From positions 5,561 to 69,560 of the forward strand of contig JBBTCX010000081.1 in NCBI GenBank assembly GCA_038043045.1: a stretch of 64,000 bases of DNA. Direction: 5' to 3'. The notes under the pieces are model-generated. The model made no database searches. It saw nothing but the letters and a program-made list of their open reading frames with translations, and was not told where the DNA came from. Origin of the DNA: Planctomycetota bacterium (GTDB lineage: Bacteria > Planctomycetota > Phycisphaerae > UBA1845). The position numbers and the translations under genes were made by a program. This document shows, piece after piece, positions 2,835 to 53,728 of this stretch. The first letter of the stretch is position 1; each line of letters begins with the position of its first letter.

Positions 2835-2878
2835 GCGCGACGGCCATTGGCGCTGGATTCATGTACCGTGCATTCGCA

Positions 2879-7823: not shown

Positions 7824-7827
7824 ATGG

Positions 7828-8058: not shown

Positions 8059-8290
8059 AAAAAAACTCCACTATCCGGGCAATTATCTTCAACGGCACGC
8101 ATTTTGCCCAGGTCCTTCCAGGCCAGGAAGTGGCGGTGAGCAAATTGAATGCCACTGCTTGACGATTTTCTACCTATGGGTTGTAGTTTACCAAGGCGTC
8201 TTTGGAAACGGAACCGCGCCCGGCTCGCTCGATGCGTATGTAACTTTTCCAAAGAGTGCGCAGGTGGTCTTTTTACAGGCGGACAGAATC

Positions 8291-10503: not shown

Positions 10504-10744
10504 GTCACGCTTACGCCGTCCCTTTTGAACGCAACATGAGCCGACCAGCACCACAAACAATCCTCGGCGCTCTTTGAAACTACCCTCAAGGACTCGAAAA
10601 CCGCTGGATCGCAAGTGGCACGCAACATGCCGAGTGATTCCCGGATAGCGCGTTCGCGGTATTGGTCGTGAACGGACGTGGAAAAGGGCGAGGGCGGCGG
10701 CGTATGATTCTATGTCGGGCCCGGAAGCAAGAAGGAGGATTAAC

Positions 10745-11389: not shown

Positions 11390-11564
11390 TGTGACGGACA
11401 GTTACGCCTGCCCGATGATCATCGAACCGCACTCTGCCGGACGTTCGGACCGTGCGGTTTTTTTGTCGCCACCCGCGTACCAAGAAACCGCTTGTTCATG
11501 GCTCTGGGCCGTTCCTCATTCTGCGGATAGGCTGCCCTTGGGGCCTGCGCTATGCACGAGATGA

Positions 11565-13466: not shown

Positions 13467-13502
13467 CGGTGCGAACGGGTCAACTGGAATAAGGCGGAAC
13501 GC

Positions 13503-37731: not shown

Positions 37732-37808
37732 TGAAGGCGTCGGCGAGAAGGCGTTGAGAAGATGTCCGCACCAGAGCGGACAGGCCATAGGGCGGGGGAA
37801 CGTGCGAG

Positions 37809-39851
37809 TTGTCCATTGAATCCGAGTTAACGAAGTCTCTGAGCCACGAGCGTTTCCGCGCGGCCGGAATGGGTCATTGGCACGGACTAAGCGTGCACTA
37901 CCGAACCCCGGTGGTGGCCGGCGCGCATGGGGTGTTGTTTACGCTGGCGCTTTTTTCATCGTTCTTGCTGGCCTATAATTTCCGATTCAACATCAAACGG
38001 GAACAAGAACTCTTCGAGTGGTTTTTCGATCTGTTTCTTCCGCTGTTGGCGTTTGCGTTACCCATCAAGTTGTTTGTTTTTCACCAGTTGGGTCAATACC
38101 GGGGTTCGTGGCGATATGTCGGACTTCGGGATTTGTTCGGTGTCATCAGTTCCTCGTTGGTTGCGTCTTTCGCACTACTCTTCGTCTATTTCGTGGCGGA
38201 AAACGGCTGGGATCAGCAATACGGTCACCGGTTGATCGACGATGCGCCGCGAGCGCGATTGCGAGAGTCTTCGGTCTTTTTGTTGGATTGGTCGGCCACG
38301 ATTGTGTTTGTGTGCGCTGCGCGGGTGCTGGTGCGGTTTTATTATGAAGACTTGCAGCCGCGTCGGGCGGAGGGTTCGACGCGCGTATTGATCGTCGGGG
38401 CCGGTGATGCCGGAGAAGCCGTCGTGCGACAGTTGCCGCGCCTTCGACAGGGTCATTACATCTGTGTGGGGTTTGTCGACGACCAGGTGCCTGAGCTTCA
38501 TGGTCGAATCCACAATGTCGAAATCATGGGGCGAACATCCCAAATTCGCGAGATTTGCGAGTCCCATAACGTTCAAGAGGTGTTCATCGCGGTGCCGACC
38601 GCGACGCCTAAGTTCATACGTGAATTGGTGGAACGATGCGAAGGTACGGGGGCAAGGTTTCGCACGGTTCCGGGTGTGGCCGATGTCATCGAAGGGCGTG
38701 TTCAAGTCAGTCAAATCCGAGATGTGGACATCACCGATCTTCTTGGTCGTGAACCGGTGGAGTTGGATCAGGAGAAGATCAGCCGGGAAATTCGCGGTCA
38801 ATGTGTGTTGGTCACTGGGGCCGGCGGAAGCATCGGTTCAGAGATGTGTCGGCAGATTGCGACATTTTCACCTCGGCGATTGGTGCTGATCGAGCGCGCG
38901 GAAAACAATCTGTTCGAGCTCGACCGCGAGCTTAGACGTTCCTTCCCCGACCTATCAATCCTCGCGACGGTCGCAGACATCGGTGACCGTGAAAGAATCG
39001 AGGCTGTTTTTCAAGAAGAGCGACCGGCCATCGTTTTTCACGCGGCCGCGCACAAGCATGTGCCGCTCATGGAACATAATCCCGGCGAGGCGATCAAGAA
39101 CAACGTCTTGGGCACGATGACGGTCGCGGAAGCGGCGATCGGGGCGGGAACAGAAAAGATGGTGATGATCTCGACGGACAAGGCCGTCAATCCGACGAGT
39201 GTCATGGGTTGCACGAAACGAATCGCGGAATTGTATGTTCAAGGTCGCAACGGTCGCGGAAGAACGCAATTCATAACGGTGCGGTTTGGAAATGTGCTGG
39301 GCAGCAGCGGAAGCGTCGTTCCGATTTTCAAGCAGCAAATCGCAGCGGGTGGGCCGATCACGGTAACCCATCCCGAAATGAAGCGATATTTCATGACGAT
39401 TGCCGAAGCCTCTCAATTGGTCCTTCAGGCGGGTGCGATGGGAAAAGGCGGGGAGATTTATCTTTTGCACATGGGCGAACCGGTCAAAATTGTTGATCTG
39501 GCACGAGACATGATTTCTTTGAGCGGGCTTCGACCGGGGATTGACATTGACATTGTTTTTTCAGGAGTGCGCCCAGGCGAGAAACTCTTCGAGGAATTGT
39601 CGGGATTGGGGGAGCATGTCGGAGACACCGCCCATCCCAAGATCGGCGTTTGGAAACATCGACCGACGGATTGGGAGGCCTTGCGGGCGGGGATACTCCG
39701 ATTGTTGAATGTAGCGAATACGGCGGAACCGGACGAACTTCAAGCCGAGATGCAACTCCTCGTGCCGGAATACACGCCGGATCATGGTTCTATGGACACA
39801 GTAGATGGTGCTCCGAGAAACGTTGTTTCAAAGACGCCGGCCGTTGTCTGA
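37809..39851 (+). CDS. Membrane-bound nucleotide-sugar 4,6-dehydratase/epimerase of the WbpM/CapD/PglF family
   Basis: 680-aa ORF. About 4 N-terminal TM helices, then two Rossmann-like regions (RVLIVGAGDAGE; VLVTGAGGSIGSE). FHAAAHKHVPLME and STDKAVNPTSVMGCTKR fit the S-M-K triad variant known for WbpM-type enzymes. Confidence 0.9.
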   Translation: MSIESELTKSLSHERFRAAGMGHWHGLSVHYRTPVVAGAHGVLFTLALFSSFLLAYNFRFNIKREQELFEWFFDLFLPLLAFALPIKLFVFHQLGQYRGSWRYVGLRDLFGVISSSLVASFALLFVYFVAENGWDQQYGHRLIDDAPRARLRESSVFLLDWSATIVFVCAARVLVRFYYEDLQPRRAEGSTRVLIVGAGDAGEAVVRQLPRLRQGHYICVGFVDDQVPELHGRIHNVEIMGRTSQIREICESHNVQEVFIAVPTATPKFIRELVERCEGTGARFRTVPGVADVIEGRVQVSQIRDVDITDLLGREPVELDQEKISREIRGQCVLVTGAGGSIGSEMCRQIATFSPRRLVLIERAENNLFELDRELRRSFPDLSILATVADIGDRERIEAVFQEERPAIVFHAAAHKHVPLMEHNPGEAIKNNVLGTMTVAEAAIGAGTEKMVMISTDKAVNPTSVMGCTKRIAELYVQGRNGRGRTQFITVRFGNVLGSSGSVVPIFKQQIAAGGPITVTHPEMKRYFMTIAEASQLVLQAGAMGKGGEIYLLHMGEPVKIVDLARDMISLSGLRPGIDIDIVFSGVRPGEKLFEELSGLGEHVGDTAHPKIGVWKHRPTDWEALRAGILRLLNVANTAEPDELQAEMQLLVPEYTPDHGSMDTVDGAPRNVVSKTPAVV

Positions 39852-39997
39852 TCCCAAGTCGGTCCATTTCCAACCGTTCCTTCACGGTTCGCAAGGATTG
39901 CCATTCCCACTTTTCACTTTGACTTCGTTCATCGCCTGATCCGCCGCACAGTATCGGCCATTGTGGTCAGGGTAGGCGTCCGCCTATAGTTCATTTC

Positions 39998-42475
39998 ATG
40001 AGTGGTCTGATTCTTGGCGCGGCGGCGCGTGGTGGCGAAGAGAGCGTTGTGGAATGGCGGAGCGTGCCCGATGGGTGGTTCCTTGTTCTGGCGGCGGCCG
40101 GCATCCTTGCATTGTGTTGGGCCGTGATTTGGATGTACCGCCGGGAAGGTCGGATCGGGGCGTCGGCGTTGACCCGGTGGGTGTTGGGATTTGCCCGATG
40201 CTCGGTGTTGGTCATTTTGGCGGCGATTCTTTTGGAACCGGTGCGGGTTCGAATTCTTCGGCGATGGGTGGATTCATACACGTTGGTCCTGGTCGATTCT
40301 TCTTCGAGTATGGACCTTGTGGATCAATATCGAGATGCCAAGGCGACGGAGCGGGTCAAGAAGGTCACCGACGGAGCGGATGCTTCGTCTTTCCGTCGAA
40401 TGGATGTGGTCAAGCATGTGCTGGAAGGAGAAAACCGTAGCTTCCTTCGGAGGCTTTCGGGAAAAAACCGGGTGAAACTATTCACGTTTGCGGATGAGCC
40501 GATTCTTCAGGGAACGCTGGCGTCCGGGCTTGAAGACCCGACTCGTGACAAGGGCAGCCTACCCGAGGGCGATAAAACCGGCGGCGCGCAAAGGGTCGAA
40601 GACTTGGCTACGACGTTTTCGGCCACGGGTCCGGCGACGAATGTCGAGCGTGCCGTGCGCCGGGCGATGGAATCGTTGGCTGGCGCACCGATTGCGGCGG
40701 TTGTCGTATTGAGCGATGGCGGTTTCAACCAGGGTTCGTCGGGTGAAGAGACGGGGAGATTCGCCCGCGATCGACACGTTCCGATTCATGTGGTCGGGAT
40801 CGGTGATCCATCGCCACCCAGAAACGTTCGCGTGGTGGAGGTCAAATCGCCGGCGAGTGTTTTTCAACAAGACCCGTTTCCGATTTCGGTTCAAGTCTCC
40901 ACCGAGGGAGTTGTCGGCGAGACGATTCAGCTTGTGCTTCGGGAGCGAGATGCGTCCGGAGGAAGTGAGGGATCGGAGATTGAGACGAGGAGTTTGCCTA
41001 TCGGCGGAGACGGATTGGTCGCGCCGCTGGTGTTCCAACGGCGGCAGGATCGTGCCGGGCGATACGTGTACACGGTGGAGGTTCCGACGCTGGAAGGAGA
41101 ATCCGTCACGGATGACAATGCCCGGCAGGTGACAATCAATGTCATTGAATCCCGTTCGAAGGTTCTCGTGGTGGCGGGGGGGCCGAGTTGGGATTATCAG
41201 TATGTGTCGCGGTTGCTGCAACGAGATGACACGTTCGACGTGAGCTGTTGGTTGCAGTCGGCGGATGTCAACGCGGTTCGAGAGGGCGATGTGATAATTG
41301 ACCATCTGCCCGCAACGGCGGAGGAGGTGTTCGCGTACGACGTGTTGATCTTGATGGACGCGAACCCGGCGGAGCTCGGCGAGGAATGGGCCCGGTTGGT
41401 GGATAAGTACGTGTCGGAATACGGTGGCGGATTGTTGCTTACCGTCGCGCGACCGTTCACGCCGGGGCTCATGCGCGAACCGTCGTTGAAACCCCTGCGC
41501 GATCTGCTTCCGGTGACTATGGATCCCGAAGCGGATTTGGCCCTCAATCGTATTGGGCATTATCAATTGTCGCCGGTGCCCGTGGAAATCCCGCCTACCG
41601 CGTTTGGACACCCGGTGATGCAACTGGCCGACGATCCCGTCTCCACCAAATTGGCGTGGCAGGGAGCAGGTGACATCCATTGGCACTATCCGGTCTTGCG
41701 GGAGAAACCCGCGGCGACGGTGTTGATGCGCCATGGCGATCCGCGTATGCGAAATGCTTTCGGCGCTCACGTGTTGGCGGCGGTGCAGTTCGTGGGGTCC
41801 GGTCGGTCCGGGTACTTGGGGATGGACGGGACGTACCGATGGCGCAGGTATAGCGAAACGACGTTCAATCGATTCTGGATTCAGATGGTTCGTTTTTTGG
41901 GCGAAGGAAAATTGCTCGGAGGCCACAAGCGGGGAATGCTGTTGACAGACAACGATCAGCTTTCACTTGGAGAAGCGGTGACCGTAACCGCGAGGTTGTT
42001 TGATGCACGCTACGAACCGTTGGCAAGGGACAAAGTCGTCGCCAACGTCATGGGTGGAGAAGGAAAGGCCGAAGTGATTTTGGCGGCGAGGCCGGATCGT
42101 CCAGGCTGGTTTGATGGGCGATTTATTCCCGACCGGGTAGGGGGATATCGAATCAGTCTCCTGGGCGTTGGCGAGCCAGGCGAAGACGGTGGTGAAATCG
42201 TGCGCGAGATTCGTGTGTCACGACCGAATCTGGAAATTGCTCGACCACAAATGGATCGAGCGGCGTTGCAAGCCCTTGCCCAACACTCTGAAGGCGGAAA
42301 ATATTTTGAATTGGATGAGGTCTCCCAGATTTCGGATTTGATTCAGGACCTTCACGAAGAGATATCGGTGCGTTCGAGGCCGACGATTCTTTGGGATACC
42401 GGAGCGGTGATGACGTTGCTCGTGGTGTTGCTTTCTTTTGAGTGGGCGGTGCGTAAGTGGAGGCACCTTCTGTAG
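39998..42475 (+). CDS. BatA-like double-TM / von Willebrand factor A domain membrane protein with GATase1-like C-terminal region
   Basis: 825-aa ORF. Two N-terminal TM helices (WFLVLAAAGILALCWAVIWMY, VLGFARCSVLVILAAILLEPV). MIDAS-like LVLVDSSSSMD and VVVLSDGGFNQG. A C-terminal TM helix (VMTLLVVLLSFEWAV). Confidence 0.8.
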   Translation: MSGLILGAAARGGEESVVEWRSVPDGWFLVLAAAGILALCWAVIWMYRREGRIGASALTRWVLGFARCSVLVILAAILLEPVRVRILRRWVDSYTLVLVDSSSSMDLVDQYRDAKATERVKKVTDGADASSFRRMDVVKHVLEGENRSFLRRLSGKNRVKLFTFADEPILQGTLASGLEDPTRDKGSLPEGDKTGGAQRVEDLATTFSATGPATNVERAVRRAMESLAGAPIAAVVVLSDGGFNQGSSGEETGRFARDRHVPIHVVGIGDPSPPRNVRVVEVKSPASVFQQDPFPISVQVSTEGVVGETIQLVLRERDASGGSEGSEIETRSLPIGGDGLVAPLVFQRRQDRAGRYVYTVEVPTLEGESVTDDNARQVTINVIESRSKVLVVAGGPSWDYQYVSRLLQRDDTFDVSCWLQSADVNAVREGDVIIDHLPATAEEVFAYDVLILMDANPAELGEEWARLVDKYVSEYGGGLLLTVARPFTPGLMREPSLKPLRDLLPVTMDPEADLALNRIGHYQLSPVPVEIPPTAFGHPVMQLADDPVSTKLAWQGAGDIHWHYPVLREKPAATVLMRHGDPRMRNAFGAHVLAAVQFVGSGRSGYLGMDGTYRWRRYSETTFNRFWIQMVRFLGEGKLLGGHKRGMLLTDNDQLSLGEAVTVTARLFDARYEPLARDKVVANVMGGEGKAEVILAARPDRPGWFDGRFIPDRVGGYRISLLGVGEPGEDGGEIVREIRVSRPNLEIARPQMDRAALQALAQHSEGGKYFELDEVSQISDLIQDLHEEISVRSRPTILWDTGAVMTLLVVLLSFEWAVRKWRHLL

Positions 42476-42540
42476 GAATTCTTGGGGGTTCAAGGATCAA
42501 CCGCGTGAATGCGTCCGTACAAGGCGTTGGTGGAGTACCG

Positions 42541-44646
42541 ATGGAATTGAACCCTATCGTTGCGCAACGATTGCGTCGTGTCGCGGGCAAGATTCGGTCC
42601 GGTGTCACGTTGAATGGACTTGCTTGTTTATGCGGATATTTGTTCGTCGCGGCCGTCGTGGTGGGCGCGGTCGATGACTTGGCCAACGGGTTGCGTTGGA
42701 GCATGCGAGCTGCTTTGGTTTTCGCGACCCTGCTTGGCGCGATTGGGGTTTTGTGGAAGCTCATCGTTGAACCGCTTCGGTGCTCCTTCGGTTCAGCGGA
42801 AGTGGCTCATTTGCTTGAACGTCGCCATCCTGAACTTCGCACGCTGTTGGTGTCGGCCGTTAGGTTTCAAGACGGTCAAGTCGGATCACCAGAGGTTTGT
42901 TCGCCGATACTGGTGGCTTCGGTCATGGAACAAGCCGGTCGCATGGCATTGACGTTGGATTTTGAAGGCGTCCTCAATATTCGAATCAAACGAATGGCGA
43001 TGTTCTCCATCGCCACGCTTCTATTGGTGTTTTCGTTTCTTTTTTGGGCATTTCCCAAACGAGCGGAGCTTTGGCTGAATCGTAGCGTTTTGCTTCGAGA
43101 GGTTCCCTGGCCTAAAGAGACGACGCTGGTCGTGGAAGCGCAAGGTGACGCGGTTATCGGCGCGCGCGGTGACGATTTGACAATCCAAGCCCATGCGCTT
43201 GGCGTTCAGCCTCGAGAGGTGGATATCGTCTTTACGACCGCAAGCGGACGTCGAGGCCGACAGTCGATGGTGACTGTCGGCGGAGGCGATGCTTTACGGT
43301 ATCGACATACCTTTGAGCGTGCACAGGAAGAGTTCACGTTTTATCTGGAAGGCGGCGACGATCGAACCGAGACGTATCGAGCGTGTCTGTTGGATCGACC
43401 CCAAGTCGTACGAAGCGAGGTGCGTATTCAACCTCCGACTTATACTCAAATGGAAACGTCGGTGTTGGGTGACGGTCAACGCGCCGCACAAGTGTTGCGT
43501 GGGAGCAATGTGACGATTCGCATTGGGACAAATCATCCCGTCAAAAAGGCACTTCTCGTTCACGGAGACCAACCTGTTGTGGAAGCCACCTCCGAAGGGG
43601 ACCGATACTCGGCCACGTTTACTCCGAATGAAACGCATACTTATCACTTTGATCTGCTCGATGACGCCGGCCTGGAGAATCGGGAAGTCACTCGGTTTTC
43701 GCTCCAAGTGGTGAAAGACGAAGCCCCACGTGTGCGGTTACGAGTGCCCGGCGCAGGCGACATGATTACGCCCGAGGCCGTTCTTCCTTTTGAAATGCAG
43801 TTTGAAGATGTTTATGGGCTGGCGGTTGCGGAGCTTCGATACCAGGTTTCGCGCGAGGGTTCCGAAGAGCGAGCCATCAAACCACCAACATTTGCGGCAG
43901 GAATGCGCAACTTCACCGCCAACTTTTCCTGGCCCGTTGCGACCGAAGATGTGAAACCGGGCGAACGAATTACCCTGGTTGTTCAAGCCGCGGATTTTGA
44001 CGATGTTTCAGGCCCAAATGTCGCACGGTCACCTGAAGTCAACCTTCGTGTTGTCACGCGGGATGAGTTATTATCGGAACTAGCTCGGCGGGAAGAACAG
44101 TACCGAGCAGAATATGAGCGGTTGATCGATGCTCAGGAGCAAGTGAGAGGGAGACTGCTAAGTTTACAGCAAAAGTTCACAGACGAAGGATTCTCAGCGG
44201 CACTTTCCGAGCAGATTGCGAGTGTTGAACGAACCCAAAGAAATGTGGCCAGTTCGGTGAACGTTATTCGACAGCAGTTTGAGCAGATTTTACGAGAGCT
44301 TCAGATTAGTCAGCTTAATTCCATCGCCATTGAAACTCGGATCGGTGGGGGGATCGTGGAACCGCTTTCATTGCTGGTGAAGCGTGATTTTGGGGAGGCC
44401 GCGGATGAGATTAGGCGTTGGTCCGGGGTAGCGGGGTCGCCTTCTCCGGAATTGGATCAGCGTCAAGTTACACTTTTGGCGCAGATGCGGACCATTCTTT
44501 CGAATATGATACACCGGGCGGGATTCCAGGAAGTCGTGAACATGCTCCGGGATATTATCCGACTTCAGGAGGAGCTTCACAAAGAAAGCAAGCAAACCGC
44601 CGAGGGAGCGGACTGGTTTGACGATGTACCTCCTAAACAGAAGTAA
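42541..44646 (+). CDS. Membrane protein of the Bat-like cluster (DUF4175-like architecture)
   Basis: Start moved to MELNPIVAQRL (42541). N-terminal TM pair (LACLCGYLFVAAVVVGAV, AALVFATLLGAIGVLWKLIV), a large extracytoplasmic region and a coiled-coil C-terminus. Confidence 0.7.
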   Translation: MELNPIVAQRLRRVAGKIRSGVTLNGLACLCGYLFVAAVVVGAVDDLANGLRWSMRAALVFATLLGAIGVLWKLIVEPLRCSFGSAEVAHLLERRHPELRTLLVSAVRFQDGQVGSPEVCSPILVASVMEQAGRMALTLDFEGVLNIRIKRMAMFSIATLLLVFSFLFWAFPKRAELWLNRSVLLREVPWPKETTLVVEAQGDAVIGARGDDLTIQAHALGVQPREVDIVFTTASGRRGRQSMVTVGGGDALRYRHTFERAQEEFTFYLEGGDDRTETYRACLLDRPQVVRSEVRIQPPTYTQMETSVLGDGQRAAQVLRGSNVTIRIGTNHPVKKALLVHGDQPVVEATSEGDRYSATFTPNETHTYHFDLLDDAGLENREVTRFSLQVVKDEAPRVRLRVPGAGDMITPEAVLPFEMQFEDVYGLAVAELRYQVSREGSEERAIKPPTFAAGMRNFTANFSWPVATEDVKPGERITLVVQAADFDDVSGPNVARSPEVNLRVVTRDELLSELARREEQYRAEYERLIDAQEQVRGRLLSLQQKFTDEGFSAALSEQIASVERTQRNVASSVNVIRQQFEQILRELQISQLNSIAIETRIGGGIVEPLSLLVKRDFGEAADEIRRWSGVAGSPSPELDQRQVTLLAQMRTILSNMIHRAGFQEVVNMLRDIIRLQEELHKESKQTAEGADWFDDVPPKQK

Positions 44647-44653
44647 GTCTAAT

Positions 44654-46714
44654 ATGCCGTTTCGAATTCTCGTCCGTGCCTTGATTGCGTTTGCCGGTTC
44701 TATTCCGGTTACGGCTGCTTTTGCACTGTCGGAAACTTCAAGGGAATCCGGGGACCCGAATACGGAGCCGTTGTCTTTGAAGCAGGAGATGGTTCGCGAT
44801 CGTTACCGGCGTTTGCAGGATCGAATTTTCCGGCTTCGTGAGGAACTTTCAGAAGCAGAACCGAAGAGCGCGGCCCGTTTGGAACGAGCCTTAGAAAGAG
44901 CTGGTGAGCTCGGTCTGGCCGACAGTCTGGAACGCATGATTCAGATGCTGCGCGATCCGTCGGCGCTTCCTGATGCGGTTGACGCCCAGGCCGAATGGCT
45001 TTCCGATGCCCAAAAGTTGTTGAGCATTCTTCTGGAGCAGGATAGTCAAAACGAAGAGCGGAAGAAGGAAATCAACCAGCTTGAAGACTACAAGAAACAG
45101 CTAGAGCAAATCCTTCAGCAAGAACAAGGATTGCGTGAGAATTCGGGGCAGGCTTCGGCGGCGGCCAGAATGCTGCGGCAACTTGAACAGGCCATTCGCC
45201 GCATGAGCGGGATGGTGGAGCGGCAAGCAGCGTTGAATCAGCAGTCGAAGCAGTCTTCCGGCGAATCCGGGAATAAGTCTCAAGACGCAAAGTCGTCGCG
45301 ATCTTCGCCCGAGCAGCTTCAAAAGAAACAAGAAGACCTGAGTCGGGAGGCTAAGGAATTTGCGGAGGAACTCAAGCAATTGGGCGACACGCGACCGGAT
45401 GACGCGCGAGAACCCAAGGCGATGCAACAGGCACGCGACAAAGTCGCGGAGGCATCGGAATCCACCAAGTCGGGCGGGGAATCCATGTCTAAGGCTTCTT
45501 CCGAAATGGGGAAGCAGGGATCGCAACAGTCCGCAAAAAGTGAACAACCATCGGGTCAAAACGCTCAACAGGCCGGACAGAGTGAGAAAAAATCTCCGCC
45601 AGAAATGCAACCCTCCGAGCAGAATCAGCAGCAGGCGGAGCAAAATCAGCAAGAGGCGGAAAAATCGTTGCGTGATGCGCTAGAGAAGCTCGAAGAAGCC
45701 AAGAAGGAGTTGGAAGAGAAATCTCGATCCGACAAATCCGCCGAGCAGCAACGATCGACGGCCAAACAGACCCGCTCGCTAAGCGATCAAATGAAAAAAG
45801 ACGGCGGGCAGCAAGGCAGCGAAGGTCAGGAAGGTGAAAAAGGGGAATCGGGTAAACCGAGTAAATCGCCTTCCTCCGGCGGACAGAAAAAAAAGTCCTC
45901 GGCTCCACAGCAATTGGACAAGGCGGAAGAGCACATGGAGGATGCGGCAGAGGAACTGGAAAAGGAAAAACCGGAGGATGCCACCCGTCCGCAGGACCGT
46001 GCGATTGAGGAACTTGAGAAGGTGCAACAGGAGCTTGAAGAAGTGCTGATGCAACTCCGCAAGGAGGAGCGAGAGGAAGTTCTTCGCGACTTGGAAGGCC
46101 GGTTCCGCGAAATGCTTTCGAAGCAGAAAGTGGTGAACGACGGGACGGTGGCCTTGTCCCAATTGGATCGCCATGATCTAAAGCGTGCCGATCAACTACA
46201 ATTCGCCGAGTGGGCGAGCAAGCAACGAGCGATCGCGGAACAGGCTTCGACTTGCGTGCACATTTTGGACGAAGAGGGGACAACCATTGCGTTTCCGCAT
46301 ATCGTGCAGCAATTGGCCCAGGATATGGGCACGGTGGCCGACCGATTGGCGGACTTTAACGCGGCCACACTGACGCAAAGTATTGAACAGGAAATCGTCG
46401 ATACCTTGGAGCAGATGCTCGACGCCTTGAAGAAGTTGCAGCAGGAGAATCAGCAACAGAGCGCTGGCGGCGGCGGAGGCGGCGGGGGTGGTCCGAAGGA
46501 CAATCAACCGTTGTTGCCGACCTCGGCGGAATTGAAGCTGTTGCGATCGAGTCAAAAGCGCGTGAACACGCGGACGACGGCCATGGAGAGCGCCAGGCAA
46601 AGCGGCGCGGAGTCCGAGGCGTCCATTGGGACTGGATTACGCCAAGCGGCTTCGCGTCAGAAGGAATGCGGCGAGATCGCCAAACGAATGCGCGAACGAC
46701 AGGGTCAACCGTAG
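44654..46714 (+). CDS. Secreted, highly charged low-complexity coiled-coil protein
   Basis: Start moved to MPFRILVRALIAFAGSIPVTAAFA (44654). Long Q/E/K/S-rich tracts, a Gly8 run, and a conserved-looking C-terminus (LLPTSAELKLLRSSQKRVNTRT). Confidence 0.65.
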   Translation: MPFRILVRALIAFAGSIPVTAAFALSETSRESGDPNTEPLSLKQEMVRDRYRRLQDRIFRLREELSEAEPKSAARLERALERAGELGLADSLERMIQMLRDPSALPDAVDAQAEWLSDAQKLLSILLEQDSQNEERKKEINQLEDYKKQLEQILQQEQGLRENSGQASAAARMLRQLEQAIRRMSGMVERQAALNQQSKQSSGESGNKSQDAKSSRSSPEQLQKKQEDLSREAKEFAEELKQLGDTRPDDAREPKAMQQARDKVAEASESTKSGGESMSKASSEMGKQGSQQSAKSEQPSGQNAQQAGQSEKKSPPEMQPSEQNQQQAEQNQQEAEKSLRDALEKLEEAKKELEEKSRSDKSAEQQRSTAKQTRSLSDQMKKDGGQQGSEGQEGEKGESGKPSKSPSSGGQKKKSSAPQQLDKAEEHMEDAAEELEKEKPEDATRPQDRAIEELEKVQQELEEVLMQLRKEEREEVLRDLEGRFREMLSKQKVVNDGTVALSQLDRHDLKRADQLQFAEWASKQRAIAEQASTCVHILDEEGTTIAFPHIVQQLAQDMGTVADRLADFNAATLTQSIEQEIVDTLEQMLDALKKLQQENQQQSAGGGGGGGGGPKDNQPLLPTSAELKLLRSSQKRVNTRTTAMESARQSGAESEASIGTGLRQAASRQKECGEIAKRMRERQGQP

Positions 46715-46737
46715 GGGAAGCTTTGGGAGACAAAACG

Positions 46738-47844
46738 ATGAGGATCATCGATCGATCGAAAAGAGCTGGTATAGTTCGACGTAGTGGGTGTCATGGTGTG
46801 GCACTTTTTGTGATCGGACTCATCGGCGTTTTTGCATGGGGTAGAGCTGTGGCCTCGCCCGTCGTTACGGGCGACGATATTATCGGACGCTTTTTGCGGG
46901 CGATCGAGTCCGATAACGCCGTCACGCCGGAGGCCAAGACGCTGTTGCGTTCGACGTGGGAAAAGTGCTCGGATTGTGACGGGGCGGAGTTTCTTGCCCA
47001 AGGGTTGGCGCTCATCTCTCCGCCTATTCGCCCTGTCTTGGAGTCTTATGACAGCGATGCCTACGAAACTTGTGCGGAAAAAGCGGGGGCATTGCGCGAC
47101 AACGCGAATCCTTTTGTCGCCGTGAATTCTTCGGTGTACGAGATCAAAGCGTTGGTGGCCATGAATCGCACGTTGCTGGCGACCGAACGTCTCACGGCTC
47201 TTTGGGGCGGTGAAAATCCGAATCGGGTGTTTCAATATTCCTATTTCGCGCCGGAGATGAGCTTTTTGAAGGGCTATTGCCTCGTGGCGGATTTGCGTTA
47301 CGCGGACGGTGAAAAAGAGTTGCAGACCTTTTTGGAGAGATACCCGGATGCGCCCAAGCGACTCACGATCGCGGCGATGCAAATGCTCACGGAGCTGGCC
47401 AATCGTGAACCGGGCGAAATCGGCGAAGTTGTCGACCTGATGAAGAACTCCCACTCGCGGTTGAATCAGGGTGACAGTGGAGAAATCGTTCAAGGTCGCC
47501 AGCAGAAGATCATGGATTTGCTTGACAAATTGGTGGAGGAGGCGGAACAAAAAGAGAAGAAGTGCAAATGCAACAAGAGCAGTTGTGACAAATGCAACAA
47601 GAGCGGATCGAAATCCGGTCAGCAACAAAAACCGCAATCGCCCATGCAAGAGTCCAGCTTGCCCGGTGGTTCCCCTTCGGGTGAATCGCTACGCGAAGCG
47701 AGATTCGCCAATCCGGCCGAGTCATGGGGGACGATGCCTCCGGCTGAACGAGATCGAATTCTTCAAGCGTTAAAGGAAAGTTTTCCCAACCGCTATCGCC
47801 AATTGGTGGAACAATATTACGCCGAATTGGCGAAAAAGCCGTAA
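46738..47844 (+). CDS. Membrane-anchored TPR-like protein, last gene of the Bat-like cluster
   Basis: Start moved to MRIIDRSKRAG...VALFVIGLIGVFAWG (46738). Cys/Lys-rich KCKCNKSSCDKCNK and C-terminal WGTMPPAERDRILQALKESFPNRYRQLVEQYY. Confidence 0.65.
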   Translation: MRIIDRSKRAGIVRRSGCHGVALFVIGLIGVFAWGRAVASPVVTGDDIIGRFLRAIESDNAVTPEAKTLLRSTWEKCSDCDGAEFLAQGLALISPPIRPVLESYDSDAYETCAEKAGALRDNANPFVAVNSSVYEIKALVAMNRTLLATERLTALWGGENPNRVFQYSYFAPEMSFLKGYCLVADLRYADGEKELQTFLERYPDAPKRLTIAAMQMLTELANREPGEIGEVVDLMKNSHSRLNQGDSGEIVQGRQQKIMDLLDKLVEEAEQKEKKCKCNKSSCDKCNKSGSKSGQQQKPQSPMQESSLPGGSPSGESLREARFANPAESWGTMPPAERDRILQALKESFPNRYRQLVEQYYAELAKKP

Positions 47845-47886
47845 CGAGAAGATCAAACGAAACCGCCGCTTTTTTGGTCCTCGCGG

Positions 47887-49326
47887 GTGATGCATGTGAC
47901 GTACTTATTCAACGTTGGGTCGTGTCTCGGTCTATTTCTCGGTGCAACGGCAGCGCGGGCGGACGACGTCAAACTTGATTTTAGTGACCCCCGTGGGTCG
48001 CCCATGTGTCGTGGCTTGCCAGAGCCGGAGAAAAAGGACTTCCACGTTGAAGGGCTTGAACTGAGTTCCTTTCAAGCGAAGAGGTTAATCTCCGCGGACT
48101 CCGAGGGTGTAGTATTTGAAACGACGGAAGGTCAGCGGGAAGTTCGTTGGGATGAACTGTCTCGGATCGTCTTTTCATGGTGGGAAAGACCACCCGCCGG
48201 TCCGATGACCTTCGCCTTGCATCCTCAAGGCCGCATTTTCGGCGAGATTGTCGATTCATTCGAAGAGGGCGTGATCGTTTATTCGTTGTTTGCGGAACGA
48301 TCGGTTCTGCCGTTTGCGCAACTCGCGGGCATCTGTTTCACGGACATCAAGGGATTCGCCAAATCCAATGAACTTTTTCGCAAGGCGTTGGAAGAGCGTC
48401 TGGTCGGGAAGGATGTTTTGATTACGCGTTCGACAACTGACGTGAGAACCATGCGGGGTCGGTTGGATTCTTTGAGCGTATACGAGGGTGTTTTTTCGCT
48501 GGGCGATAAAGCTCGATCGTTTGACGTTGACAAGGCCTACGGGATCGTTTTTGCGAGCGGGCTTGAAAATGCGTCGAAGCACCGTTTGATTTGTCGACTC
48601 AACGACGGGTCCTTTTTTCAAGCCACGCCGGTACGGGCGAATGGGGATTCGGTGACGCTGTCCACGTCTTTAGGAAGCGAATTTACCTTGCCCGTGTCGA
48701 CCATCGCGGTGTTGGATATCATCAGTGCGCGGGTAAAGTACTTGGGCGATCTCAAACCCATCGCGGAATCCACGGAAGGAATCCTTCAGACTCCTTGGTC
48801 GGCGTGCTTCGGGTGCAATGTGGCCGGCGAACCCATTCGAATGCTGCAAAAAGAATACGCCCGTGGGATTGGCGTGCACAGTCGTTCAGAGCTGACCTTC
48901 GAAGTCGACGGCGGGTATGAATCTTTCGCCGCGACGATCGGGATCGATGACTCTGTTCGACCACGCGGTAACGTCGTCTTTCGAATTGTGGGTCAACGCG
49001 CCGTTTCGAAAACATCGAATCCGCGAAAGTCGGGCGCGGGTTCCGTGACCGAAGAAGTAGGAAATCGACTCCCGGCTCTTTTTCCTGAGGAAAAAGAAGA
49101 GGGGAAGCCATCGGTGGAATCTCCCGAACTCGATGCTCCAAAAGTGCTATTTGATAGCGGTGCAGTGACCGGATTGGATTCGCCACGTGATATTTCCGTT
49201 CCTGTTGTTGGCGTCGTACGTTTGACGCTGGTCGTCGATTATGGCGACGAATTGGATTGGTCGGACCGAGCGAACTGGGCCAACGCCCGCTTGCTTCGAC
49301 CGGCGTCGACCGTGACAAGACCATGA
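47887..49326 (+). CDS. Secreted protein with C-terminal NPCBM-like (carbohydrate-binding module-like) domain
   Basis: 479-aa ORF with signal peptide LFNVGSCLGLFLGATAARA. NPCBM-like GIGVHSRSELTFEVDGGYESFAATIGIDDSVRPRGNVVFRIVG ... VVRLTLVVDYGDELDWSDRANWANARLL, with an inserted acidic linker. Confidence 0.75.
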   Translation: MMHVTYLFNVGSCLGLFLGATAARADDVKLDFSDPRGSPMCRGLPEPEKKDFHVEGLELSSFQAKRLISADSEGVVFETTEGQREVRWDELSRIVFSWWERPPAGPMTFALHPQGRIFGEIVDSFEEGVIVYSLFAERSVLPFAQLAGICFTDIKGFAKSNELFRKALEERLVGKDVLITRSTTDVRTMRGRLDSLSVYEGVFSLGDKARSFDVDKAYGIVFASGLENASKHRLICRLNDGSFFQATPVRANGDSVTLSTSLGSEFTLPVSTIAVLDIISARVKYLGDLKPIAESTEGILQTPWSACFGCNVAGEPIRMLQKEYARGIGVHSRSELTFEVDGGYESFAATIGIDDSVRPRGNVVFRIVGQRAVSKTSNPRKSGAGSVTEEVGNRLPALFPEEKEEGKPSVESPELDAPKVLFDSGAVTGLDSPRDISVPVVGVVRLTLVVDYGDELDWSDRANWANARLLRPASTVTRP

Positions 49327-51155
49327 CCGGTGGAACTTCGATTCACGTTTGTGCCCCCGCCGCCTTCAACTGCTCGGGTCGGATGCGAGACGCCGTCACG
49401 GCCGCGTTGATCTTGCTTTTTTCTTTTGCATCGATTCTTCATGCGGAAGAGGGCGAGCTTCAACAATTGTTAGAGCAAGAACGTGAATTCGTGGCGCTGG
49501 TCGACCGACTTTCCCCGGCCGTGGTTTGCATCTTTGATGCTCAGCAACGTGGAATGGGGTCCGGAGTGTTGATCGACGCCGAAGGTTACGGCCTGACCAA
49601 TTACCACGTCGTCGCGGGCATGATCGGGTCGGATGCGGATCGTGGCGGACTCAATGACGGCAAATTGTACGATTTGGAGGTTCTGGGCATTGACCCCACG
49701 GGGGATGTCGCGATGTTCCGGCTTCCCGGTCGAGACGCGTTTCCATATTGCGAACTTGGGGACTCGGATCAGATTCGGGTCGGTGATTCGGCGATAGCGA
49801 TGGGCAATCCGTTCTCGCTGAGCGAGGACAACACGCCGACGGTCTCGCGCGGTTTGGTGACGGGCGTTCATCGTTATCAATGGGGTGTCGGAAACAATCT
49901 CATTTACTCGGATTCCATTCAAGTCGATGCGTCGATCAACCCCGGCAACTCCGGTGGACCTCTGTTTGACGGAAACGGCATGGTGATCGGGATCAATGGG
50001 CGCATCTCGGTCAACCGGCGCGGACGGTACAACGTTGGTTTCGGTTATGCGATTTCGATCAACCAGATCAAGCGGTTCATTCCGACGCTACGCGCGGGAC
50101 TGCTTGGAAAACACGGCACACCTCAAGCCAAGGTCGAGGATATGGAAGAAAGAGGCGTCGTCTTCGCCGAAATCATGCGAAACGCGTCGGCTTCGAATGC
50201 GGGCGTGCGAGTTGGCGATCGATTGTTGTCTCTCGACGGAATCCCCATCGTCTCTCGCAATCACTTTGCCAGTGTGATCGGCACTTATCCCGCTGATTGG
50301 CCTGTTTTGCTCACCGTGGATCGACAAGGAAAGGTATTGGATTTCGAAGCCCAATTGGACGCCATCCCTCCCAAGCTCGGCAAGCCGTTTGAACCGGACG
50401 TTCAAGCCAATATTCGCCAAGCGGAACGAGTCATCAAGCAGTTTCGGGCAAGCGTTCTGGGTTCTACGGACCTGGGTTGGCCGCAACATTGGATATGGAC
50501 GATCATACGCCGGTATCGATCTGAAAACACGCGCGGAAAACTTGACGATCGTTTCGTCGTCACCCAACAAGACAACCAACCCGCCTACCTGCGACTTCTC
50601 AATCAAGACGAATCGCCGGGATCGACCGTGGAATATACCGATCAATCGGCCAAATGGTTGGGATCGAAGGTGACAACGGTTGCGCGAATGGGAAATGGCG
50701 ATGTCGAACCGCCGGGCGACGAAGGGTTGGAGGTTCCTTTTGAAACTGCCATGATGCTGAATGCATTGTACTTTGCTCAGCACGGACTCGCTCGGGTCAC
50801 CGATCCCTTGAATTCGGAAATTCACCACCGTGGCGGTCACGCGATTCGCTCCAATGAAATGGACGACTTAACCAGGTCGACGACCTTTCGCGGATCCGAA
50901 CGAACGCACTCGCGCATCGTCGAAGAAATCGTCTACCCTTTGAGCGAACATGTCACGGCAATCTACTCTTTTGATGTCGACACCCACCGCATTGTGCGAA
51001 TCCGAGTGACCGATAACCCGACGGGCGTCGAAGTTGTTATTACCCTGAGCGATTACCGTGACATTGGTGCCATGCAGTGGCCCCACACGATGTGGGTGCA
51101 AAGCCCGCTCGGAGATTTTTGCGACACGCTCTGCGATTGGCAGGTGTCACCATGA
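49323..51155 (+). CDS. HtrA/DegP-like trypsin-fold serine protease with PDZ domain and long C-terminal extension (catalytic triad intact)
   Basis: ATG 49323 overlaps the upstream stop (ATGA). His in GYGLTNYHVV, Asp in GDVAMFRL, Ser in INPGNSGGPLFD. PDZ-like GVVFAEIMRNASASNAGVRVGDRLLSLDG. Confidence 0.85.
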   Translation: MTGGTSIHVCAPAAFNCSGRMRDAVTAALILLFSFASILHAEEGELQQLLEQEREFVALVDRLSPAVVCIFDAQQRGMGSGVLIDAEGYGLTNYHVVAGMIGSDADRGGLNDGKLYDLEVLGIDPTGDVAMFRLPGRDAFPYCELGDSDQIRVGDSAIAMGNPFSLSEDNTPTVSRGLVTGVHRYQWGVGNNLIYSDSIQVDASINPGNSGGPLFDGNGMVIGINGRISVNRRGRYNVGFGYAISINQIKRFIPTLRAGLLGKHGTPQAKVEDMEERGVVFAEIMRNASASNAGVRVGDRLLSLDGIPIVSRNHFASVIGTYPADWPVLLTVDRQGKVLDFEAQLDAIPPKLGKPFEPDVQANIRQAERVIKQFRASVLGSTDLGWPQHWIWTIIRRYRSENTRGKLDDRFVVTQQDNQPAYLRLLNQDESPGSTVEYTDQSAKWLGSKVTTVARMGNGDVEPPGDEGLEVPFETAMMLNALYFAQHGLARVTDPLNSEIHHRGGHAIRSNEMDDLTRSTTFRGSERTHSRIVEEIVYPLSEHVTAIYSFDVDTHRIVRIRVTDNPTGVEVVITLSDYRDIGAMQWPHTMWVQSPLGDFCDTLCDWQVSP

Positions 51156-52285
51156 GGCACGTGTACTCCGGAATAGTGGCGTCATTGCTCGCGATCGTCA
51201 CCGTTTCGCCTTGTTTGGCCGGCGGGTTTGATGTCGCCATCGATTCGGCCACGCATCGGGCAGTGAAGCTCTACGGCCTCGGCGCGGGCGCGCAAGCCGG
51301 CTATGGAACGGGCACCATGGTCTCCAGCCAAGGGCATGTGCTCACGGTCGATTCGCTTTTGATCGACGCCAAGCGAGTTCGCGTGGTGTTGCCCGATGGC
51401 ACTCGCCATGAGGCCGAGGTCCTGTATCGTGACTTCTCCCGCCAGTTGGCGCTGCTACAAGTTCGTCGACCGACTTCGAAGAGCCTGGTGGAACAATTCG
51501 CACTGGAGCCGTTGGGGCCTTTTCCGTTTTTTGACATGAAAGACGGCTTCGCCCATGCGACCAAGGACCTGCATTCGTCGGCCAACGCGGAACGGTTGAA
51601 CGAGCTTCGTCAAGGGGACTGGGTGTTGGCCGCGGGGAACGCTTTCAAAGTGGCCGAAGGACCGGAAATGGTCTCGGTGGCTCACGGGGTCTTTTCGACA
51701 CGGACTCGGTTGGACGCCAGGCGCCGGGCGAGAGATTTTCCCTATCAAGGTGATGTTCTGGTCATCGACGCCATCACGAGCAATCCCGGCGCTGCTGGCG
51801 GTCCCGTGGTGGATATTCACGGCCGATTGATCGGCATCATTGGCCGCGAGGTGATTTCGAATCTGACGCACACCCATTTCAACTACGCCGTTCCGTTGGA
51901 CGTACTCCAGGCGTTTTACGCGGATGCGATGAAGTTCAAGGAGCCGACCTCACCCGAGGAATTGGTTTCGACCGTCAAAACATTCGAGAAGAGTTCGAGT
52001 GCCACGGCGGCGGCACTTCAAGATGTCGACTTTGGTTTTCGCGTGACCCGGGCCGGCTATACCACGGTCCTCCCGTTCGTGGAAAAAGTACGGCTGGGTT
52101 CCTCCGCCGCGCGCGGCGGTTTGAAGGAGGACGATTTGATTCTTACGGTCAACGGCAAGAACGTCGCGGATGTGATCGAATGCGAAAAACGGATCGCCGA
52201 TTCTCCGCCGGGCAAACCGCTGGACCTCGTCGTCCGCCGCGATCGTGCAATCCTGCCCATCCGTGTGGAGTCGAAACAGCCATGA
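51152..52285 (+). CDS. HtrA-like pseudoprotease with PDZ domain (all three triad positions substituted)
   Basis: ATG 51152 overlaps the upstream stop (ATGA). Trypsin-fold pattern YGTGTMVSSQGHVLTVDSLL (His position is Ser), RQLALLQV (Asp position is Gln), SNPGAAGGPVVD (Ser position is Ala). PDZ-like VEKVRLGSSAARGGLKEDDLILTVNG. Confidence 0.8.
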   Translation: MRHVYSGIVASLLAIVTVSPCLAGGFDVAIDSATHRAVKLYGLGAGAQAGYGTGTMVSSQGHVLTVDSLLIDAKRVRVVLPDGTRHEAEVLYRDFSRQLALLQVRRPTSKSLVEQFALEPLGPFPFFDMKDGFAHATKDLHSSANAERLNELRQGDWVLAAGNAFKVAEGPEMVSVAHGVFSTRTRLDARRRARDFPYQGDVLVIDAITSNPGAAGGPVVDIHGRLIGIIGREVISNLTHTHFNYAVPLDVLQAFYADAMKFKEPTSPEELVSTVKTFEKSSSATAAALQDVDFGFRVTRAGYTTVLPFVEKVRLGSSAARGGLKEDDLILTVNGKNVADVIECEKRIADSPPGKPLDLVVRRDRAILPIRVESKQP

Positions 52286-53556
52286 ACAGACGGAAAAACA
52301 GATTATGCATCTCGTGGGTGACAGCCATGGGCACTTTGGCATGCGGATTCGCGGCCACGGTTTCTTTTGCGGACCCTCTCCGCGAACAGCCGGTCCTTCA
52401 AGACCCCGTCTCTTCTCACGTCGCGTTGCAACAGGCGTTTCGAAGAGTGGCCGATCGTCTTCGCCCAACCTTGGTTAGAGTGGAGACCGTCGGTGGCGCC
52501 CAGCCTCCCGAAAAGGCAGTGGAACTAGACGAGACCGTCGACAAGGGCGATGAACAACCCGGACCATTGCCGCCGCCCAAGCCCCGTTCCCAAAAACCCT
52601 TTCGAGATAACCCGGGATCGCAGTTTTTGCTGGCCGACGGTCCGACCACCGGCATCATCTACCGCTCCGACGGGTACATCCTGACCAGCAGCTTCAATTT
52701 CGTCCGTGAACCGACCCTCGTATCGGTGACGCTATCTGATGGACGACGACTCGCCGCCGATCTGGTTGCGCGAGATCAAGTTCGCAAGTTAGCCCTGCTC
52801 AAGATCGATGCTGTCGACTTACCTGTCCCAACTTGGGTGTCATCCGATGACATTTTCGTGGGACAATGGACCGTCGCACTGGGTCTCGGATTCGGCGGCC
52901 CGGAACCCTCGATTTCCGTCGGAATCGTCAGCGCCCTCAATCGAATGGCGGGCAACGCGATTCAAGTGGACGCCAAGCTGAGCCCGGCCAATTACGGCGG
53001 CCCCATCTGCGATCTCCGGGGTCGAATTCTTGGAATCTCCGTTCCGTTGGCCCAACGTCCCGGTGAACTTGCCGGTGTCGAACTCTACGATGCCGGTGTC
53101 GGTTTTGCGTTACCGAAAACCCGGGCTGATGACATCGCGGCATCGCTGATCAAGGGGGAATCATTCTATCGTGGTTGGTTGGGCATGGTGGTGGACCCTC
53201 GACGAAATGACGCTGTCGTGGTCGGGAATGTCGCTGAACCCTCGCCCATGCAAGCAGCCGGGGTCAAACGCGGCGACAAGGTCCTTTCCGTCGCCGGCAA
53301 GGACATCCGCAATTTCGGCCAGATTCAACAATATCTTTACATGTACCCCGCCGGTCAGGAAGTGAACATTAAGCTCGAACGGGAGAGCGAAGTTTTCGAA
53401 GTCGCCATCAGACTCGCCCGCGCCGCCGACCTTGGACCCTTGCCCGATATTGAAGAGCCTTCGGTTTCCGTCGAAACCATCGATCCCACTGACATCGAAC
53501 TCTTCCGTCCCGTCGACGAGGATCATTCCGACCACGATGATCACCCGGACGAGTAA
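52282..53556 (+). CDS. HtrA-like pseudoprotease with PDZ domain (all three triad positions substituted)
   Basis: ATG 52282 overlaps the upstream stop (ATGA). Signal peptide ISWVTAMGTLACGFAATVSFA. GIIYRSDGYILTSSFNFV (no His), RKLALLKI (Asp position is Lys), IQVDAKLSPANYGGPICD (Ser position is Tyr). PDZ-like VVGNVAEPSPMQAAGVKRGDKVLSVAG. Confidence 0.8.
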   Translation: MNRRKNRLCISWVTAMGTLACGFAATVSFADPLREQPVLQDPVSSHVALQQAFRRVADRLRPTLVRVETVGGAQPPEKAVELDETVDKGDEQPGPLPPPKPRSQKPFRDNPGSQFLLADGPTTGIIYRSDGYILTSSFNFVREPTLVSVTLSDGRRLAADLVARDQVRKLALLKIDAVDLPVPTWVSSDDIFVGQWTVALGLGFGGPEPSISVGIVSALNRMAGNAIQVDAKLSPANYGGPICDLRGRILGISVPLAQRPGELAGVELYDAGVGFALPKTRADDIAASLIKGESFYRGWLGMVVDPRRNDAVVVGNVAEPSPMQAAGVKRGDKVLSVAGKDIRNFGQIQQYLYMYPAGQEVNIKLERESEVFEVAIRLARAADLGPLPDIEEPSVSVETIDPTDIELFRPVDEDHSDHDDHPDE

Positions 53557-53728
53557 TACCGATTCCAGTTTAAGATCGTCCCTGCTCCACAGAGGACCCG
53601 AGGGTAAGAACCATCTCGGTTTGCCGGGAGGCCGCGCGACGCTCAAGTCGATTCCTCTCTTTTTCATCGTGCATATTCATGCGGGCCGATACCCACGCTT
53701 GCGCGAGAACGACTTTGGGCGATCCTCT

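Follow-up and report, generated by a model that had tools for sequence, protein, structure and literature searches.

HtrA proteases are trimer-based oligomers with activation between subunits, as in DegS and DegP, and with DegP, DegS and human HTRA1/2 they supply the textbook models of allostery between identical subunits. In other families, active and inactive paralogs are combined in one fixed complex, namely ClpP/ClpR of cyanobacteria and plastids and the beta subunits of the 20S proteasome; in the plant Deg5-Deg8 complexes both subunits are active. Here we describe a gene cluster in a 64-kb stretch of DNA from a Planctomycetota bacterium of the class Phycisphaerae (assembly GCA_038043045.1, contig JBBTCX010000081.1, positions 5,561 to 69,560 of the forward strand; the whole stretch is hereafter "the window"), in which the gene for a live HtrA-type protease (Pr1) is followed by the genes for two paralogs with a replaced catalytic triad (Pr2 and Pr3). 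HtrA pseudoproteases have arisen repeatedly (PMC4794232, Hershey et al. 2016), and one of them, the dead HtrA-like protein MamO, activates the live protease MamE and also binds metal (PMC4794232). MamO/MamE was the sole precedent found in a literature search that left most subscription journals outside; the cluster itself was not found described, and the literature searched yielded no report of an obligate live/dead arrangement for a bacterial HtrA.

From the sequence evidence presented below, we think it reasonably likely that Pr1, Pr2 and Pr3 are three subunits, present in equal amounts, of one mixed extracytoplasmic (periplasmic) complex of the HtrA type.

Gene arrangement and junctions

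Coordinates are window positions throughout, and the cluster analysed extends from 39998 to 53556 on the + strand. The protease genes, the gene that precedes them (G1) and the junctions between them are as follows (aa, amino acids).

47887-49326, + strand: G1, 479 aa, secreted protein with an NPCBM/CBM51 domain
49323-51155, + strand: Pr1, 610 aa from ATG 49323, live HtrA-type serine protease
51152-52285, + strand: Pr2, 377 aa, HtrA pseudoprotease
52282-53556, + strand: Pr3, 424 aa, HtrA pseudoprotease
49323-49326, + strand: ATGA stop/start overlap of G1 and Pr1, context CCATGA, start uncertain
51152-51155, + strand: ATGA stop/start overlap of Pr1 and Pr2, context CCATGA
52282-52285, + strand: ATGA stop/start overlap of Pr2 and Pr3, context CCATGA

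The first-pass annotation, made from the letters of the sequence, had described a four-gene operon coupled by ATGA overlaps. All three overlaps are present at the positions it gave, each as CCATGA, and the four genes are indeed tightly spaced; the conserved unit proved to be larger, comprising eight genes with U1-U4 (see below). The ATG starts of Pr2 and Pr3 agree with the public (NCBI) gene calls. That of Pr1 differs by annotation, PGAP choosing TTG 49257 (632 aa) and ENA choosing ATG 49323; since most Pr1 orthologs lack the first ~20 residues of the window protein, ATG 49383 is also a possible start. The G1/Pr1 overlap has the least certain start among the three junctions.

Across orthologous loci, the genes are separated by a median of +5.5 nucleotides (nt) at G1/Pr1, -4 nt at Pr1/Pr2 and -1 nt at Pr2/Pr3, and exact 4-nt overlaps occur at 8/60, 19/69 and 26/70 of these junctions, respectively. 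On these counts the close packing of the genes is not due to chance, and the frequency of stop/start overlaps fits coupled, equimolar translation. A scan of 37500-54500 for promoters and terminators gave counts no higher than the shuffled expectation, and operon boundaries were not defined by it.

The proteins of the cluster often end in proline (Pr1 38/76, Pr2 27/78, and the upstream proteins U4 22/50 and U3 16/43); for comparison, about 12% of 320 flanking open reading frames (ORFs) in loci L001-L080 do so. Such ends read CCA-TGA or CCG-TGA in 79 of 138 cases, the proline codon giving the first base of the overlapping ATGA or GTGA, and the window junctions (49321-49326, 51150-51155 and 52280-52285) are all CCATGA. 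It may be that termination is slow where a stop codon follows proline, and that re-initiation is thereby favoured.

One live protease and two dead paralogs

The domains of the three proteins are listed below, with Pfam expectation (E) values where available.

49557-49994, + strand: Pr1 protease domain, Trypsin_2, E 1e-28
49605-49607, 49704-49706 and 49950-49952, + strand: Pr1 triad codons, His95, Asp128 and Ser210, respectively
50142-50354, + strand: Pr1 PDZ domain (one), Pfam
51305-51838, + strand: Pr2 trypsin-fold domain, Trypsin_2, E 3e-18
52076-52240, + strand: Pr2 PDZ domain (one), Pfam
52648-53037, + strand: Pr3 trypsin-fold domain, Trypsin_2, E 5e-21
53179-53412, + strand: Pr3 PDZ domain (one), Pfam

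Pr1 consists of a signal peptide, the protease domain, one PDZ domain and a poorly conserved C-terminal extension of ~260 aa. Pr2 carries an insert at aa ~108-150, and Pr3 a long LA-like loop at aa ~70-115. HMMER searches against solved chains matched HtrA structures in the PDB with E values of 3e-37 (Pr1), 5e-18 (Pr2) and 8e-30 (Pr3). Among the NCBIfam models all three proteins are nearest to the Do/DegP subfamily, with scores far under the cut-off, and Pfam finds PDZ_2, PDZ_6 or PDZ matches in each. Signal-peptide-like hydrophobic N-termini were seen on G1, Pr1, Pr2 and Pr3 by simple hydropathy inspection. An AlphaFold2 (AF2) model of Pr2 built from 120 homologs (predicted local distance difference test, pLDDT, 84.8) has the HtrA protease and PDZ fold, and its best Foldseek matches are DegP, DegQ and DegS (E ~5e-19).

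The catalytic columns were located in three kinds of alignment: HMMER alignment to solved DegP/DegQ chains, L-INS-i alignment with E. coli DegP and 75-80 orthologs, and hmmalign. His95, Asp128 and Ser210 of Pr1 fall on the DegP triad (HMMER, L-INS-i), and every complete Pr1 ortholog has His-Asp-Ser. At the same columns, all three kinds of alignment place Ser68/Gln98/Ala215 in Pr2 and Asn139/Lys169/Tyr238 in Pr3. A shifted triad was seen in none of the alignments. Pr2 and Pr3 have the S1C fold and, judged by these residues, are not active S1C peptidases.

A word-indexed search with Pr2 returned 478 relatives; in the best 120 of these, which are about 50% identical, the triad columns hold Ser (118), Gln (113) and Pro (107). 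Counting one genome per species, at least 551 genomes contain a Pr2 relative, and our genome-locus counts rest on the best 80 loci among them; at least 557 metagenome loci exist in addition. All 80 belong to the Planctomycetota, with representatives of the Phycisphaerae, Pirellulaceae, Planctomycetaceae and other Planctomycetia. The order Pr1-Pr2-Pr3 was found in 56/56 genome loci with enough flanking DNA, and the same trio in 80 further metagenome loci.

The replacements at the catalytic columns are themselves conserved. In Pr2 orthologs the His column is Ser, Gly, Thr or Ala, the Asp column is Gln in 77/80, and the Ser column is mostly Pro, Ala or Gly, with Ser in four; neither His nor Asp ever stands at its triad column. 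Pr3 orthologs have Asn at the His column (70/75), Lys or Arg at the Asp column (69/75) and Tyr at the Ser column (72/75). When Pr3 was compared exhaustively by phmmer with 1.84 billion cluster representatives, 685 matches reached E<=1e-30; among the best 150 of them the nucleophile column is always Tyr or Phe. The full triad is present in no ortholog of Pr2 or Pr3. One apparent case, a "Pr3" with a complete triad in locus L033, was an extraction artefact: all three units are fused in this ORF (Pr1-Pr2-Pr3), which is identical to P0265, described below.

In both dead families the best-conserved segments surround the old active site ('DAITSNPG' and 'GDW..a.gN.FKVA' in Pr2; 'tS.FNF' and 'QTDA.lsPaNYGGP' in Pr3), and neither family has lost the oxyanion-loop Gly-Gly or the carboxylate-binding loops (x-Gly-x) of the PDZ domain. 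Nei-Gojobori ratios of nonsynonymous to synonymous substitution (dN/dS) in 14 close genome pairs were 0.06-0.33 for Pr2 and 0.05-0.20 for Pr3, as compared with 0.07-0.24 for Pr1. The paralogs are pairwise 25-27% identical; identity to E. coli DegP is 36% for Pr1, 23% for Pr2 and 30% for Pr3, and we judged each to be closer to DegP than to the other paralogs. On that ground the split of the three is ancient, and a recent duplication is ruled out. By all of these sequence indications, Pr2 and Pr3 are maintained pseudoenzymes.

These results bear out the first-pass annotation, which had read the locus as one active HtrA-like protease and two paralogs with the whole triad replaced. The motifs that it quoted for the three proteases are all in the translations, and the alignments find the triad live in Pr1 and replaced in Pr2 and Pr3. 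Its view that the dead paralogs keep their scaffold, signal peptides and PDZ domains agrees with the Trypsin_2 and PDZ matches and with hydropathy. That they are maintained rather than decaying is upheld by the conserved trio, the conserved replacements and dN/dS values like those of Pr1. The comparison with related genomes that it had proposed shows both the trio order and the substitutions to be conserved in Phycisphaerae and Planctomycetia.

Two variants within the dead families were noted. The members of a large long-form Pr3 family (~650 aa; P0361, P0368, P0413) combine a dead Asn-Met-Tyr site with two PDZ domains and an extension at the C-terminus, and occupy the Pr3 position of U2-U3-U4-G1-Pr1-Pr2-Pr3 in 80 metagenome loci (L088-L167). 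The residue at the Asp column varies in this family (Met, Gln, Asn, His, Ser or Gly), and the Asn and Tyr persist. Phycisphaerae-type Pr2 has a near-invariant Thr-His-Thr-His at aa 239-242 (51866-51877), including His240 and His242; this motif, which recalls the di-histidine metal site of MamO, is absent from Planctomycetia-type Pr2.

Natural fusions of the three proteins

Pr1 and Pr2 form a single ORF in loci L061, L064, L067 and L084. The fusion from L084 was used as the query in a search of 5.8 billion proteins, of which the best 120 matches were examined. Among these, 119 (at least 119 protein clusters) are single chains in which a live Pr1 unit is followed by a dead Pr2 unit, and His-Asp-Ser is present in the Pr1 unit of 119/120 fused chains. 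The C-terminal extension of Pr1 is absent from 48 of the Pr1-Pr2 chains and present in 67. Four of the 119 continue into Pr3 and are thus Pr1-Pr2-Pr3 single chains: P0257 (1071 aa), P0262 (1227 aa), P0327 (1203 aa) and P0265, the last being partial and identical to L033. In loci L086 and L087, all three units lie in one reading frame directly after G1. One Pr2-Pr3 fusion was also found (P0342), which NCBI and JGI each list.

A fused chain carries just one signal peptide, at its N-terminus, with linkers rich in Pro, Ala and Ser in place of the internal signal peptides. Because Pr1, Pr2 and Pr3 occupy three different frames in the window, simple read-through error cannot make such chains. The triple fusions are 37-50% identical to one another in the Pr2 unit, and the nearest relative of each is a different class of relative; as they are not mutual nearest relatives, several independent fusion events are indicated. 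By the Rosetta-stone argument, recurrent fusion means that the three proteins act together, at 1:1(:1), in one compartment. The fixed-stoichiometry hetero-oligomer suggested in the first-pass annotation gains strong, indirect support from these chains; the complex as such, and its architecture, we infer.

The eight-gene cluster

Upstream of G1 lie four further genes, U1-U4.

39998-42475, + strand: U1, 825-aa membrane protein, two hydrophobic helices at the N-terminus and one at the C-terminus, BatA-like topology
42457-44646, + strand: U2, 729 aa (701 aa in the NCBI call), three N-terminal hydrophobic helices, distantly DUF4175-like
44618-46714, + strand: U3, 698 aa, secreted or anchored, rich in Glu, Gln, Ala and Ser, with low-complexity stretches
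46666-47844, + strand: U4, 392-aa single-pass membrane protein with a Cys-rich stretch near the C-terminus

Neighbours within this set (39998-47844) overlap or lie end to end, and synteny is kept in relatives, where the order U1-U2-U3-U4-G1-Pr1-Pr2-Pr3 recurs in both Phycisphaerae and Planctomycetia. Judged by this synteny, the conserved unit is one of eight genes, U1-U4 plus the four described above. Pr1 is preceded by G1 in 57/62 loci, and 38/47 have U3/U4 upstream.

The window copies of U1-U4 gave no significant Pfam or NCBIfam match. U1, whose syntenic orthologs are 30-65% identical, matches VWA/VWA_2 only at E ~0.005, below the Pfam threshold, and a PDB sequence search with it found no match. 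In L084 a gene with PF07584 (BatA) and VWA domains lies immediately upstream of the U1 ortholog; a BatA match was obtained in that locus only. DUF4175 matched 5/38 orthologs of the U proteins (best E 4.6e-8), and the match that was located lies at aa 301-449 of the U2 ortholog in L078. U3 contains 12.6% Glu and 11.6% Gln. Orthologs of U4, which adjoins G1 in most loci, show weak TPR matches, and faint VWA signals also appeared among the 38 orthologs.

G1 is better defined, with two recognizable parts.

aa ~52-278 of G1, + strand: four small beta-barrel repeats in the AF2 model, with weak Tudor/KOW-like matches only
~48736-49296, + strand: NPCBM/CBM51 fold (PF08305, E 5e-28), with a disordered insert at aa 382-415

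The AF2 model of G1 (76 homologs; pLDDT 86.9, predicted template modelling score 0.81) matches the CBM51 structure 2vmg in Foldseek (E 1.7e-9, TMt 0.84), and CBM51 chains in the PDB are matched by sequence as well. The co-conservation of G1 with the proteases in 57 of 62 loci suggests a functional link between them.

Genes for polysaccharide metabolism flank the cluster in two genomes. In the window, a CapD-like gene (Polysacc_synt_2, 37809-39851) lies directly upstream of U1. Behind the cluster in L081 (14022-21212) come genes encoding a heparinase II/III-like protein, an NTP-transferase, a Bac_transf protein and a CbiA/AAA_31 ATPase that may be a chain-length-determinant kinase. These genes may be relevant to the CBM51 protein G1. 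On the other side, a gene for a 718-aa membrane protein with Fer4_5/4Fe-4S dicluster motifs and C-terminal TPR repeats (53729-55885, - strand) faces the end of Pr3 in convergent orientation; other loci do not show this gene in synteny with the cluster.

A proposed mixed complex and its alternatives

If Pr1, Pr2 and Pr3 do form one particle, only Pr1 would cut, and Pr2 and Pr3 would be its non-catalytic subunits. The latter would bind polypeptides or C-terminal signals without cleaving them, and would control Pr1 through the inter-subunit loop contacts that normally switch HtrA oligomers on. The simplest architecture would be a 1:1:1 heterotrimer replacing the usual homotrimer; stacked homotrimers, making up a 3:3:3 particle, agree with the data just as well. 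The complex would work with the secreted G1 and usually also with the four Bat-like or DUF4175-like membrane proteins. Given the gene neighbourhood, it would belong to an envelope system found throughout the phylum and possibly linked to a glycan or glycoprotein.

A bolder version is offered tentatively. In this, the homotrimer has given way to an obligate heterotrimer in which only one site is active, two different dead subunits, each with a PDZ sensor of its own, gate Pr1, and the lectin-like CBM51 protein docks the whole to a Bat-like/DUF4175-like membrane complex. The cluster would then be a phylum-wide system of envelope surveillance with no counterpart in the model bacteria, and would in some lineages be a single-chain 'trimer'.

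Several points speak against a mixed complex of this kind. With paralogs of 25-27% identity, the interface of a mixed trimer would have had to co-evolve. Fusion proves a common compartment and 1:1 dosage, and no particular interface. The roles given to G1 and U1-U4 are read from synteny only, and U3/U4 are missing in 9/47 loci. Finally, L083, a chromosome built as a metagenome-assembled genome, has G1 and a truncated Pr1 with no adjoining Pr2 or Pr3. In this locus (CP070827.1, 3771687-3793060) a U3 fragment, U4, G1 and a Pr1 cut at 445 aa are followed by genes on the opposite strand, which could mean that the genes were truly lost or rearranged, or that the assembly is wrong here.

Of the other explanations, the one that survives best, which we nevertheless consider unlikely, places the three proteins in the same pathway and compartment without a stable particle. 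Pr2 and Pr3 would be homo-oligomeric holdases or adaptors that pass clients to Pr1 or shield them. HtrA proteins are normally homo-oligomers, and inactive DegP (S210A) keeps its chaperone activity; the low identity between the paralogs also suits separate assemblies, and operon linkage by itself requires no complex. Independent fusions of Pr1-Pr2, Pr2-Pr3 and Pr1-Pr2-Pr3 are, however, hard to square with separate homo-oligomers, unless the like domains of three chains trimerised, and this would again be one fixed-ratio particle.

Less probable still is that Pr2, Pr3 or both are decoy or latch inhibitors that serve mainly to hold Pr1 inactive until a signal removes them, as opposed to activators or substrate binders. 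The Tyr that Pr3 so strongly conserves at its nucleophile column could plug a cleft. Against release stands the covalent, permanent joining to Pr1 seen in many lineages. The conserved binding loops of the PDZ domains suggest ligand sensing. Pseudoenzymes do often inhibit their active relatives, as among metallopeptidases (PMC11266112), but MamO, the only studied precedent, promotes its partner rather than blocking it.

We hold it very improbable that Pr2 or Pr3 catalyses through non-canonical residues, such as a Tyr-Lys pair in Pr3. The strong conservation of Asn, Lys/Arg and Tyr at the triad columns of short-form Pr3 might suggest this, but the variable Asp column of the long form means that there is no constant Lys partner, and the Tyr-Lys dyad was dropped for this reason. 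The nucleophile column of Pr2 is Pro, Ala, Gly, Glu or Ser, and no alternative conserved set of Ser, His and Asp was seen in the Pr2 and Pr3 alignments. That Pr2 and Pr3 are functionless, decaying duplicates of Pr1, as the loss of all three catalytic residues might imply, is refuted by the conservation data, namely intact ORFs in every locus examined across two classes, dN/dS of 0.05-0.33, conserved replacement residues and an ancient split.

If the mixed complex is real, an HtrA that pairs one live subunit with two unlike dead ones would separate sensing from cutting, and would reveal which inter-subunit contacts suffice for activation. The single-chain forms in many lineages would ease expression at fixed stoichiometry. 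The eight-gene cluster is among the few conserved in both major classes of the Planctomycetota, whose envelope is unusual and poorly understood, and for four widespread membrane proteins not yet characterised it offers a first functional handle, proteolysis together with the binding of glycans.

Other genes in the window

The remainder of the window includes the following.

1383-5656 (- strand), 6924-15413 (+ strand) and 58372-60219 (- strand): dense multihaem c-type cytochrome genes (Paired_CXXCH_1, Cytochrome_C7, MtrC/MtrF-like and NapC/NirT-like families, one fused to cytochrome b561)
16401-22877 and 22890-28637 (both - strand): tandem giant genes for a 2158-aa Tc-toxin-like protein (SpvB, TcdB_toxin_midN, RHS repeats, FG-GAP) and a 1915-aa protein with Laminin_G_3
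30524-34005 (+ strand): an extracytoplasmic function (ECF) sigma factor gene overlapping the start of a gene for a 977-aa Ser/Thr protein kinase with TPR
55452-56870 and 56834-58330 (both - strand): tandem paralogs of the beta-eliminating lyases (tryptophanase/tyrosine phenol-lyase family; Pfam E 1e-71 and 6e-82), overlapping by 37 nt
60958-61731: nitrate-reductase-delta-like chaperone
61697-62974: 4Fe-4S protein

The cytochromes, the 4Fe-4S protein and the chaperone suggest a module for extracellular or periplasmic electron transfer.

Comparison with known systems

In sequence and fold the three proteins are closest to DegP, DegQ and DegS (MEROPS S1C), with which they share the trypsin fold, PDZ domain and signal peptide, Pr1 having all of the catalytic motifs. 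Those proteases are homo-oligomers of identical active subunits, whereas here the live gene is inseparable from two dead paralogs; in addition, Pr1 has its extension of ~260 aa where a second PDZ domain would be.

The accompanying genes recall two further groups. The BatA-like topology and weak VWA match of U1, the BatA plus VWA gene of L084, the weak DUF4175 match of U2 orthologs and the TPR-like U4 orthologs resemble envelope operons of the Bat (Bacteroides aerotolerance)/MoxR-VWA type, but the domain signals of U1-U4 are all below Pfam thresholds. No gene for a MoxR ATPase or DUF58 protein was found among the scanned large ORFs of the window, and for this reason U1-U4 were not assigned to these operons. 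To our knowledge, Bat operons do not include HtrA paralogs. By Pfam and by fold, the C-terminal domain of G1 is of the CBM51/NPCBM type found in clostridial and streptococcal glycoside hydrolases; G1 differs in having no catalytic glycosidase domain, and its module follows four beta-barrel repeats and is encoded within a protease operon. Two other candidates were set aside: the NPCBM conflict systems (PMC8195603) are intracellular and unrelated to the cluster, and AdvA, a DUF4175 protein of A. baumannii, is a cell-division protein with no evident link to it.

ClpP/ClpR and the proteasome offer a parallel in evolution, a homo-oligomeric ancestor having become an obligate hetero-oligomer in which non-catalytic subunits are kept for structure or regulation, although they belong to other folds and families (ClpP and the Ntn hydrolases). 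If the mixed complex holds, a bacterial HtrA would join these few homo-oligomeric proteases that have turned into fixed mixed complexes.

The magnetosome pair MamE/MamO is alike in that its gene cluster also combines a live HtrA with a dead protein of the HtrA fold. It differs in several ways. The Planctomycetota cluster has no magnetosome genes, and Pr2 and Pr3 consist, by Pfam, only of Trypsin_2 and PDZ domains without a fused transporter domain; the NCBIfam MamO and MamE scores of the proteases are far under the cut-off. No universally conserved di-histidine metal site was seen in Pr2 or Pr3 orthologs. There are two distinct dead paralogs here instead of one, the trio is kept across the phylum, and live and dead units occur fused in single chains. 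An HtrA with a pseudoprotease partner is already known from MamO/MamE; the cluster described here adds the fusions, a second dead paralog and the phylum-wide trio.

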